Shown here one piece after another: positions 12,979 through 15,228 of a stretch of 28,348 nt of DNA (its first letter is position 1; every line of letters starts with the position of its first letter). Source of the DNA: an uncultured Candidatus Saccharibacteria bacterium. Its GTDB lineage: Bacteria > Patescibacteriota > Minisyncoccia > Minisyncoccales > CSSED10-335. Under the pieces are notes generated by a model, which was not told the origin of the DNA, ran no database searches, and worked only from the letters and a program-made list of their open reading frames with translations. The translations under genes and the position numbers were made by a program. The stretch is from contig CAYVNL010000065.1 of the NCBI GenBank assembly GCA_964452925.1, positions 1 through 28,348 on the forward strand. Reading direction: 5' to 3'.

Positions 12979-14386
12979 TTTTTCTTTGATGACAATAAAA
13001 GATATTAGAGAGGGGTTGAATAAAAATGATTTTTCAGTAGTTGAGATTACGAATTTTTTTATTGATAAGATAAAAAAAGATAAATCAGGATCTTTTATTA
13101 CGATATCAGAAAAACTTGCACTAGAACTTGCAAATAATTCAGACAAAGATATTGGTCTAGGCATAAAAAAAGATCTTTTAGGTATTCCGTTTGGAATAAA
13201 AGACAACATTGCTGTTAAGAATATTCTTTATACTGCTGGATCGAAAATGTTAGAAAATCATAAATCTTGCTATGATGCAGAAGTCATTGAAAAACTTAAA
13301 AAAAATGGTTCGGTTATATTAGGAAAATTAAACATGGATGAGTTTGCAATGGGATCATCAAACGAAAGTTCATTTTTTGGTAATGTTAATAATCCTCATG
13401 ATCCAGAAAGAGTTGCTGGCGGTTCTTCTGGGGGTTCGGCTGCATCGGTTGCTTTAGGGCTGTCAGTTTTTTCTCTTGGTTCTGATACTGGTGGGTCAAT
13501 AAGGCAGCCAGCATCTTTTTGTGGAGTTGTTGGATTAAAACCAACCTATGGATCTGTTTCTAGAAGAGGTCTTATATCTTTAGCTTCATCACTAGATCAA
13601 ATCGGTACTTTAACAAAAAATATAGATGATTCGATAAGTGTTTTTAATATTATATCTGGCAGAGATCCACTAGATTCAACATCAAAAGAAACAGACAAAA
13701 AGATTAAAGAAATTGATTTTTCTAAAATAAAAATAGGTGTTCCAAAGGAATATTTTATTGATGGAATAGATCCAAGGATTGAAAAAATGATAAAGGATTG
13801 CATAGATAAATTATATAAAAAAGGAATTGAAATTAAAGAAATAAGCCTTCCACATACAAAATATGCCCTTCCGGTATATTATATTATTATGTCTTCAGAA
13901 GCTTCAACTAATTTAAGCAGATACGATGGCTTAAGGTATGGTTTCAATAAAAAAGAAAAAAAAGATATAATAGATTGTTATTTCAATAACAGGGGAGATG
14001 GTTTTGGTTTAGAAGTTAAAAGAAGAATAATACTAGGAACTTATTGTCTTTCATCTGGATATAAGGATGCATACTACAACAAAGCAATGAAGATAAGGAA
14101 TTTAATAGAAAATGACTTTAATGATGCATTTAAAGAAGTTGATATAATCATTTCGCCAACATGCCCTGAGTTACCATTCAAGATAGGGGAGAAAAATATT
14201 AATCCTGTTTCAATGTATCTTTCAGATATACTTACAGTAACTGCTAATTTGTCTGGAATCCCTGCAATTTCTATGCCTTGTGGTAAAATAAACAATCTTC
14301 CTATTGGAATCCAACTAATGGGTAATAAATTTGAAGATTTAAAAATGCTAGAAATAGCTAAATATTTTGAAAAAATATGGAAATAA
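12971..14386 (+). CDS. gatA: Asp/Glu-tRNA amidotransferase subunit A
   Basis: IKDNI; GKLNMDEFAMGSS; GGSSGGSAA; GSDTGGSIRQPAS; NLSRYDG; EVKRRIILG. Confidence 0.98.
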   Translation: MNNFSLMTIKDIREGLNKNDFSVVEITNFFIDKIKKDKSGSFITISEKLALELANNSDKDIGLGIKKDLLGIPFGIKDNIAVKNILYTAGSKMLENHKSCYDAEVIEKLKKNGSVILGKLNMDEFAMGSSNESSFFGNVNNPHDPERVAGGSSGGSAASVALGLSVFSLGSDTGGSIRQPASFCGVVGLKPTYGSVSRRGLISLASSLDQIGTLTKNIDDSISVFNIISGRDPLDSTSKETDKKIKEIDFSKIKIGVPKEYFIDGIDPRIEKMIKDCIDKLYKKGIEIKEISLPHTKYALPVYYIIMSSEASTNLSRYDGLRYGFNKKEKKDIIDCYFNNRGDGFGLEVKRRIILGTYCLSSGYKDAYYNKAMKIRNLIENDFNDAFKEVDIIISPTCPELPFKIGEKNINPVSMYLSDILTVTANLSGIPAISMPCGKINNLPIGIQLMGNKFEDLKMLEIAKYFEKIWK

Positions 14387-14919
14387 CAAATGAATTTATA
14401 AATGAAATTATAAAATACGCCATTGACCCTCTATCTATACCATCGCCATTTATAAATATCTTTATAATAGCTAGATATCTATTTTTTATTTTTGCAATAT
14501 TTTCTATTTTTCTTATTGTTTATATATTGATTACAACGAGTTGGCTTAAGTTTAAATTTTTTGAAGATGCTCTGGAGTTTATAAAGTTTAGACCTTACGG
14601 AAGCGACAAATATCATAAAGATTGGAAAAAGATATCAAAGCAAGTTGAATCAGGGATTGAAGCAGAATATAAGCTAGCAATAATTAAAGCAGATACCATA
14701 TTAAATGAAGTTTTAGAAAGCATAGGTTATACTAAAGGTTCAACAGAGGAGAAAATAAAACAAGCAGGACCATTAGAAATAAATAATTTCGTAGAAATAC
14801 AAGAGGCTAGGATAGTTAGGAATGGTATTATTCACGATCCAGACTATGATTTATCTTATGAAAAGACAAAGGAAGTTCTAGCCATATATAAGGAAACAAT
14901 TAAAACTCTAGGAATATAA
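14377..14919 (+). CDS. Single-TM hypothetical protein with C-terminal helical domain carrying a HEPN-like RNxxxH motif
   Basis: Hydrophobic segment about aa 27-53; EYKLAIIKAD..L..VL; ARIVRNGIIHD (R148-H153). Confidence 0.6.
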   Translation: MEITNEFINEIIKYAIDPLSIPSPFINIFIIARYLFFIFAIFSIFLIVYILITTSWLKFKFFEDALEFIKFRPYGSDKYHKDWKKISKQVESGIEAEYKLAIIKADTILNEVLESIGYTKGSTEEKIKQAGPLEINNFVEIQEARIVRNGIIHDPDYDLSYEKTKEVLAIYKETIKTLGI

Positions 14920-14945: not shown

Positions 14946-14948
14946 CTG

Positions 14949-15022
14949 CGGGGACGACCGGACTTGAACCGGCAACCTCCACTGTGACAGAGTGGCGATC
15001 TAACCAATTGATCTACGCCCCC
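14949..15022 (-). tRNA. tRNA-Asp(GTC)
   Basis: Full cloverleaf: GGGGGCG acceptor, anticodon arm CCACT-CTGTCAC-AGTGG, TTCAAGT T loop, G73; CCA not encoded. Confidence 0.97.
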
Positions 15023-15029
15023 TAGGTTA

Positions 15030-15103
15030 TGCCGACGGGAGGTCTCGAACCTCCGACCTACGGCTTATGAATCCGTCGCTCTAACCAGCTGAGCTACGCC
15101 GGC
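15030..15103 (-). tRNA. tRNA with CAT anticodon (elongator Met or Ile2)
   Basis: GCCGGCG acceptor fully paired, AGCTGGTTA D loop, ACGGA-TTCATAA-GCCGT anticodon arm, TTCGAGA T loop, A73; CCA not encoded. Confidence 0.93.
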
Positions 15104-15117
15104 AAACTATGAAATTG

Positions 15118-15188
15118 TTGCGGGGGCCGGAATTGCACCGGCGCCTTGAGGTTATGGGCCTCACATGGTACTACTCCACCACCCCGCT
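15118..15188 (-). tRNA. Initiator tRNA-fMet(CAT), atypical
   Basis: AGCGGGG...CCCCGCA-A acceptor nearly identical to bacterial fMet with a 1:72 mismatch; anticodon arm TGAGG-CCCATAA-CCTCA; T loop TGCAATT; 71 nt. Confidence 0.85.
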
Positions 15189-15199
15189 ATATAGATCTG

Positions 15200-15228
15200 A
15201 TTGTAATATAATTTTATTTTTTAATCAA
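15200..15228 (-). promoter_or_regulatory. Promoter of the tRNA operon
   Basis: Minus strand TTGATT (15228-15223), 17 nt, TACAAT (15205-15200); predicted +1 about 5 nt before the first tRNA. Confidence 0.75.

Follow-up and report, generated by a model that had tools for sequence, protein, structure and literature searches.

Bacterial initiator tRNAs are known by three textbook hallmarks, the C1xA72 mismatch, the A11-U24 pair and three G-C pairs in the anticodon stem. Textbooks present the contact between G18 and psi55 as a lock that holds the L-shape of nearly all tRNAs, and they treat U33 as near-invariant. Bacterial initiators with two G-C pairs, of the Mycoplasma and Rhizobium types, were reportedly described by Samhita et al. 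in PNAS in 2012, and the three pairs are thus a hallmark but no absolute rule in bacteria.

In the description by Jaeger et al. (2009, PMC2615604), a T-loop combines a UA handle with a U-turn whose sequence is UNR or GNR. The contact to the intercalating nucleotide is usually a 'G-clamp' and rarely a 'U-clamp', tRNA-Phe being singled out as the U-clamp case; the intercalated base stacks on the A of the U:A handle and forms a hydrogen bond with the clamp G (PMC2615604). A review of T-loops makes no mention of G55 or A18 (PMC7912444), and a search of the literature outside subscription journals turned up no paper in which an A18-G55 pair is named. At position 33, Wang et al. give U33 for the initiators of bacteria and unicellular organisms and C33 for those of multicellular eukaryotes, and they show that E. 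coli TsaBCDE no longer forms t6A37 once U33 is changed to C (PMC8887486). Loss of the anti-SD has been published for a Parcubacteria subgroup overlapping the group that lacks uL1 (Tsurumaki et al. 2022, PMC9297842).

We analysed a stretch of 28,348 nucleotides (the window) from a Parcubacteria (CPR) genome of 571,681 bases in 98 contigs, with 31% G+C and an estimated completeness of 94.8%. In the window ARAGORN placed three tRNA genes, all of them on the minus strand, at 14948-15022 (tRNA-Asp, GUC), 15029-15104 (tRNA-Met, CAU) and 15117-15188 (tRNA-Met, CAU). The divergent gyrB gene lies upstream of this cluster and the convergent gatA operon downstream. The last ORF of the operon (14377-14919, plus strand, 180 aa) faces the tRNA genes, and a Pfam search with it gave no match. 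The features of the locus are listed below, where R1 is a covariance model made from 29 orthologous initiators.

15118..15188, minus strand: initiator tRNA (tRNA-fMet, anticodon CAU), positions 1-73, 71 nt; found by ARAGORN, Rfam RF00005 and model R1.
15172, minus strand: A18, within the 7-nt D-loop AGUAGUA (15169-15175), with G19 at 15171; from the sequence, and covarying with position 55.
15136, minus strand: G55, within the T-loop UGCAAUU (15131-15137), with U54 at 15137, C56 at 15135 and A58 at 15133; from the sequence, covariation and the G-clamp signature.
15152..15158, minus strand: anticodon loop CCCAUAA, with C33 at 15157 and the anticodon CAU at 15154-15156; from the sequence.
15188, minus strand: A1, unpaired with A72 (15119), with A73 at 15118; from the sequence, and 1:72 non-canonical in cmscan.
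15030..15103, minus strand: elongator tRNA-Met (CAU) with a canonical elbow, G1-C72 and an A31.G39 mismatch; found by ARAGORN and Rfam.
14949..15022, minus strand: tRNA-Asp (GUC), the end of the fMet-Met-Asp cluster; found by ARAGORN and Rfam.
15200..15228, minus strand: promoter-like TTGATT-17-TACAAT, the -10 ending 11 nt before the tRNA 5' end; a match in a consensus scan only.

Rfam RF00005, whose gathering score is 29 bits, matched all three tRNAs, and the initiator gene scored 51.3 bits. Read base by base, this gene has A1xA72, G2-C71, C3-G70 and A73 at its acceptor end, a D-stem of G10-U25, U11-A24, G12-C23 and G13-C22, and an anticodon stem of U27-A43, G28-C42, A29-U41, G30-C40 and G31-C39. 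These are followed by a variable loop of 4 nt, the T-stem GCCGG/CCGGC and a T-loop with U54, G55, C56, A57 and A58, and the CCA end is not encoded by the gene. The numbering of A18 is secure, because relatives (e.g. L044) have a D-loop of equal length, AGUGGUA. The sequence-only reading, made before our analysis, had listed A1xA72, U11-A24, A29-U41, C33, A18 and G55 as departures from the bacterial consensus and the pairs G19-C56 and T54-A58 as retained, and we found all of them at 15118-15188 of the minus strand.

Two of the 33 tRNA genes of the host genome have the anticodon CAU, and both are in the window. Given that a tRNA-Ile with the anticodon UAU is also present (contig C63:6418-6491), one of the two CAU tRNAs is the initiator and the other an elongator, and no lysidine-type tRNA-Ile2 is needed. 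The paired 1:72 end and the canonical elbow identify the tRNA-Met at 15030-15103 as the elongator. An identity as tRNA-Ile2 (lysidine CAU) was ruled out for the initiator gene by the tRNA-Ile(UAU), the count of only two CAU tRNAs and the initiator acceptor end. AUA is apparently decoded without a lysidine tRNA in this genome, as there is no third CAU tRNA. In an R1 search of the host genome the initiator gene scored 99.8 bits, and the runner-up, a tRNA-Asn, 54 bits. Neither R1 nor the list of tRNA anticodons gave a second initiator candidate in the approximately 95%-complete genome of 98 contigs, which answers the proposed check on whether this gene is the only initiator; a canonical fMet tRNA elsewhere, which had been named as evidence against the earlier reading, was likewise not found there. 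The genes fmt (284 bits, above the curated cut-off), def (peptide deformylase) and truB, for which a search had been proposed, are all encoded in the host genome. Presumably, the tRNA is charged by MetRS and formylated by Fmt, since it has no 1:72 pair and carries G2-C71, C3-G70 and A73. The Fmt determinants G2-C71, C3-G70 and A73 are invariant in an alignment (A1) of 29 initiator orthologues, which represent 29 genera in the window's order. Reads of the metatranscriptome run X19 partly covered the elongator tRNA-Met with mismatches, and they therefore come from another organism.

A 241-nt query with the fMet-Met-Asp cluster matched in 38 of 41 related genomes. All helices of the initiator are 100% paired across the 29 relatives of alignment A1, and both sides have changed in 13 of the 22 scored pairs (20 stem pairs plus 18:55 and 19:56). 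The observed pairing values were matched by none of 500 shuffles, and sliding the partners abolished the signal. The full stem pairing and the both-side changes over 29 genera exclude a pseudogene. An identical tRNA was found on a 9.4-kb contig that had been assembled independently, in a different study of a different habitat (run X2), which excludes a sequencing or assembly error and, with it, the read-level errors that had been raised as a possible refutation. We regard the gene as the working initiator of the host genome and as being under selection; the view that it is functional rather than decaying is borne out by the compensatory stem changes over 29 genera and by its place as the sole initiator candidate.

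The elbow of this initiator departs from the canonical one at positions 18 and 55. To place it within the phylum, we searched 150 evenly drawn genomes with R1 and took the best match of each. The 114 initiators that could be parsed comprised 18 with A18/G55 and 96 with G18/U55, and none was mixed. In the window's order, 27 of 29 initiators had a UGCAA T-loop together with an AG D-loop (AGUAGUA, AGCAGUA or AACAGUA), and the remaining two combined a UUCGA T-loop with GG D-loops (AACGGUA and AAUGGUA). One apparent exception, AGGAGUUA with UGCAAUU, proved to be A18-G19 after numbering. When the two sets were merged and two double-counted genomes removed, 141 genomes gave 43 A18/G55 initiators, 98 G18/U55 initiators and no mixed state (Fisher p = 3e-37, a value that is overstated since the genomes are related). 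All four bases of G19-C56 and U54-A58 are invariant in alignment A1. The perfect covariation, without a mixed state in 141 initiators or in the 28 tRNA-Cys described below (tallies that count related genomes and not independent switches), gives good support to the view that the double change at 18 and 55 is compensatory, as had been suggested from the single gene. Judged by this covariation, A18-G55 is a genuine elbow pair that is used by many tRNAs of the phylum.

The same pair is found in other tRNAs. In the host genome, G55 is present in two of the 33 tRNAs, the initiator and tRNA-Cys(GCA), and these are the only two without GG in the D-loop. The tRNA-Cys (contig C32:2043-2115) has A18/G55, with the D-loop AGCAGCA and the T-loop UGCAAUU. 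Among the tRNA-Cys of 28 relatives, we counted 23 with A18/G55, five with G18/U55 and none with a mixed state. In two genomes of the window's family (G004 and G006) the initiator is A/G and tRNA-Cys is G/U, and in G039, a member of the window's order, the initiator is G/U and tRNA-Cys is A/G; these opposite states indicate that the initiator and tRNA-Cys switch independently. The pattern argues that the 18/55 switch is a within-molecule property of each tRNA and no response to a genome-wide factor. A18/G55 also occurs in the tRNA-Leu(UAA), tRNA-His and tRNA-Phe of single relatives, and the canonical elbow is present in 40 tRNA-Asp, 49 elongator tRNA-Met, 13 tRNA-Gly and most tRNA-Leu and tRNA-Phe of the same loci. 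We also scanned a broad collection with a pattern of 14 specified bases; of the 120 stretches listed most were chance matches, and at least about 20 were true tRNAs. Among the matches listed, true tRNAs with A18/G55 came from MAGs assigned to Saccharibacteria, Parcubacteria, Acidobacteriota (Cys), Thermoguttaceae (Thr), Hyphomicrobiaceae, Chloroflexaceae and Gammaproteobacteria, a distribution that is anecdotal beyond CPR and gives no count.

Several further oddities of tRNA structure were encountered in these loci. Three contigs outside CPR (L271 from a Rhodocyclaceae MAG, L276 from an Actinomycetes MAG and L238 from a Chloroflexaceae MAG) carry tRNA clusters with A18/G55 or odd T-loops, such as tRNA-Arg with GGCAGAU and tRNA-Lys with UGCAACU, and these clusters may be mobile-element or phage tRNA arrays. 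One tRNA-Leu(UAA) (L384, G036:C1) has the D-loop GAAUCGCUAGA and the T-loop UUGGAGU, which looks like a C19:G56 swap of the G19-C56 pair. A third state at position 55, C55, was seen with a normal GG D-loop, that is with position 18 unchanged, in the elongator tRNA-Met of L007, L015 and L018 and in the tRNA-Val of L376 (T-loops UCCGAUU, UCCAAAU and UCCGAGU). The A31.G39 mismatch of the elongator tRNA-Met, at the bottom of the anticodon stem, is conserved across the window's family; in more distant relatives the mismatch of this tRNA sits instead at the top of the stem, as G27.A43 or A27.G43.

We then compared the altered loop with the described classes of T-loop. At the level of sequence, UGCAA is an exact U-G-N-R-A G-clamp signature with invariant U54 and A58, and a contact between an intercalating base and the clamp G, if present, would predict a covariation such as that of A18 with G55. 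We propose that G55 would convert the T-loop to the G-clamp form, its Watson-Crick edge clamping the A58 phosphate as the N3-H of psi55 does, and that A18 would intercalate between A57 and A58 and pair with G55. With G19-C56 and U54-A58 unchanged, the L-shape would be preserved. Since the initiator has G55, it can have no psi55 and cannot be a TruB substrate at this position, so it would lack a position-55 modification; truB would be kept for the other 31 tRNAs.

The second unusual feature of the initiator is C33. In the CPR loci that we fetched, C33 was present in 25 of 57 initiators and in 0 of 189 other tRNAs. The initiator of the host genome is the only one of its 33 tRNAs without U33. Within the window's order C33 was found in 20 of 29 initiators, and it was seen with both elbow states. 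C33 in a bacterial lineage is unexpected, because U33 is given for bacterial initiators (PMC8887486). By analogy with E. coli TsaBCDE, C33 might block t6A37 formation in the CPR initiator. TsaD is present in the host genome, and TsaC/Sua5 was not found in this 95%-complete genome. The same aquatic sample (run X1) yielded another contig, whose related initiator carries U33 and differs at three places in positions 42-44 (15146-15157 of the window); a close relative with the U33 form thus co-occurs with the host organism.

The three textbook hallmarks of bacterial initiators proved to be variable as well. The window's gene combines the anticodon CAU with the absence of a Watson-Crick 1:72 pair. 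Position 1 is mostly C in the relatives, with several A and a few U even within the window's family, and A72 is fixed; four of the 29 relatives have U1-A72, a weak pair. This variation is consistent with a requirement that no strong 1:72 pair be formed. U11-A24 takes the place of A11-U24 in the window's gene, in the sampled genera of its family and in a few others, and A11-U24 is the majority state of the order (21 of 28 distinct sequences). At 29-31:39-41 the gene has A29-U41, G30-C40 and G31-C39 and not three consecutive G-C pairs. A29-U41 is the commonest state at 29:41 in the phylum sample (49/114), followed by G29-C41 (34/114) and U29-A41 (26). Some CPR initiators have U31.G39, and G30-C40 alone is invariant in the order. 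The phylum frequencies show that the three-G-C rule is relaxed across CPR, which extends the known exceptions. Because A1, U11-A24, A29-U41 and C33 are too variable among relatives, the departures form no single package; varying as they do among close relatives, we interpret these four as tolerated lineage polymorphisms of CPR initiators.

The earlier reading had tied the initiator to SD-free or leaderless initiation. The host 16S gene (contig C15, about 1-1250, L034) has the 3' tail GGAUCAUUUAAUUUU instead of GGAUCACCUCCUUA and no CCUCC, and CCUCC is absent from all 23 16S tails recovered in the window's order. GGAGG is present upstream of 2 of the 318 long ORFs of the host genome, without SD enrichment, and the region from -11 to -2 upstream of these ORFs is 43-62% A. 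As read from its genome, the host organism is SD-free. The host 16S keeps G1338, A1339, A790, G926 and C1400; a change at 1338-1339, which had been put forward as something to look for, is not there. A cross-table of the phylum sample gave 12 G55 initiators with anti-SD and two without (both from the window's order), and 26 U55 initiators with anti-SD and two without. A link between the elbow and anti-SD loss was rejected by this cross-tabulation of related genomes (Fisher p = 0.59). Outside the window's order, all 12 sampled A18/G55 genomes (12/12) keep the CCUCC tail, and two anti-SD-less relatives, G039 of the window's order and G181, have canonical elbows. In line with the published overlap between anti-SD loss and lack of uL1, we did not detect uL1 (PF00687) in the host genome or in the three other sampled members of the order; it was also not detected in two members of the class, and 134 of the 151 genomes sampled across the phylum have it. 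This protein is encoded in 14 of the 18 sampled A18/G55 genomes and absent from G012, G161, G181 and G156, which have the canonical elbow. A link between the elbow and uL1 loss was rejected, since the two states do not track each other. Re-engineering of the initiator for SD-free initiation is unsupported, given the 12 of 12 A18/G55 genomes with anti-SD and the 14 of 18 with uL1, and an adaptation of the initiator elbow to SD loss is not supported.

Taken together, these results make it very probable that the gene is the sole functional initiator of its genome, that it has an alternative A18-G55 elbow which switches tRNA by tRNA, and that its other departures are tolerated polymorphisms. It is extremely improbable that the gene is a decaying, non-functional copy (a pseudogene) or an assembly artefact. 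Its Rfam score of 51 bits is indeed lower than the 65-66 bits of the neighbouring tRNAs, and several near-invariant positions deviate, but the gene has been kept, with compensatory changes in its stems, in 29 genera of the order and across the phylum, it is the only initiator candidate of the genome, and the same sequence was obtained in an independent assembly. We also consider it very unlikely that the elbow, C33, A29-U41, A1 and U11-A24 form one package that re-engineers the initiator for SD-free or leaderless initiation. The missing CCUCC in the host 16S and in 23/23 recovered tails of its order, the long ORFs without SD enrichment and with an A-rich region from -11 to -2, and the highest frequency of A18/G55 (27/29) and C33 (20/29) in the window's order would all fit such a package. 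However, the 12 A18/G55 initiators outside the order are all in CCUCC-bearing genomes, G039 and G181 have lost the anti-SD and yet have the canonical elbow, and the A18/G55 elbow is found in elongator tRNAs; these three points weaken the earlier proposal. Moreover, C33 occurs in the anti-SD-bearing genomes G048, G176, G124, G053, G061 and G086, A29-U41 is the commonest state phylum-wide (49/114 initiators), position 1 and the pair 11:24 differ between genera of one family, and the 16S retains G1338, A1339 and A790.

A different question is whether A18-G55 is neutral. The pair could have been selected in the initiator and tRNA-Cys because some elbow-reading or T-loop-reading partner then recognises these tRNAs differently. 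The candidate effects include evasion of TruB/psi55 and of U54 methylation, altered handling by RNase P or at the ribosomal P/E-site, and escape from a tRNA-targeting nuclease; we judge this reading quite unlikely. The distribution among tRNAs is non-random, with 27/29 initiators and 23/28 tRNA-Cys carrying the pair and the other tRNAs being mostly canonical, and since truB is retained, the G55 tRNAs are a distinct psi55-less subset. The near-fixation in the initiator and tRNA-Cys and the rarity elsewhere hint at selection beyond neutral structural equivalence. On the other hand, the candidate partner is only hypothetical, uL1 loss does not track the elbow (14/18 A18/G55 genomes have uL1), and reversions to the canonical pair in the same family (the tRNA-Cys of G004 and G006) suggest that selection is weak. 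It is also unlikely that the pair defines a second, psi55-free elbow class, actively selected through an elbow-reading partner, which, together with C33, would let CPR bacteria set their initiator apart through the lack of 'universal' modifications; in such a case the readers may be TruB or the U54 methylase, RNase P, the ribosomal P/E-site contacts or a tRNA nuclease of phage-host conflict. We therefore favour an alternative elbow in a functional initiator, with the other departures tolerated.

On this favoured reading, a whole bacterial order would initiate on a tRNA with neither G18-psi55 nor U33. With no mixed state among about 170 genes, nature itself provides evidence that the canonical contact can be replaced by a T-loop of the G-clamp type into which an adenine intercalates. 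These genes offer a natural test set for the rules of tRNA folding, for the substrate rules of TruB, TrmA and the enzymes of t6A synthesis, and for tRNA-gene finders, in which such genes receive low scores. The three textbook hallmarks (C1xA72, A11-U24 and three G-C pairs) are relaxed across CPR, and the loss of the anti-SD and uL1 in the Parcubacteria group appears to be no driver of the tRNA changes. The anti-SD/SD loss in a Parcubacteria subgroup has already been published (PMC9297842). What our analysis adds are the negative anti-SD and uL1 tests, the independent switches of the initiator and tRNA-Cys, the initiator-only C33 and the phylum-level frequencies of the hallmarks.

The window's initiator resembles E. 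coli tRNA-fMet (metZWV/metY) in its CAU anticodon, unpaired 1:72 position, A72, A73, G2-C71, C3-G70 and G-rich acceptor stem, and also in G30-C40, G31-C39, G19-C56 and U54-A58. It differs from the E. coli sequence in having A1 and not C1, U11-A24 and not A11-U24, A29-U41 and not G29-C41, C33 and not U33, and A18/G55 and not G18/psi55, as well as in its 7-nt D-loop, its 4-nt variable loop and its unencoded CCA. With an A-U pair at 29:41 followed by two G-C pairs, it is like the initiators of the Mycoplasma and Rhizobium types; unlike those types, which are not known to depart from a canonical elbow and U33, it belongs to a sample of CPR initiators in which the relaxation is the norm. It shares with the initiator of multicellular eukaryotes a C33 that is restricted to the initiator (PMC8887486), and its loop CCCAUAA is that of human tRNAiMet. 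The eukaryotic initiator differs from it in pairing A1 with U72, in carrying A54 and A60 and in being unformylated. Finally, its UGCAA carries the U-G-N-R-A signature of the G-clamp T-loops of rRNA, RNase P and riboswitches. The G-clamps of that description were found in RNAs other than tRNA (PMC2615604), whereas here a tRNA would adopt the G-clamp form, with A18 as the predicted intercalating base.
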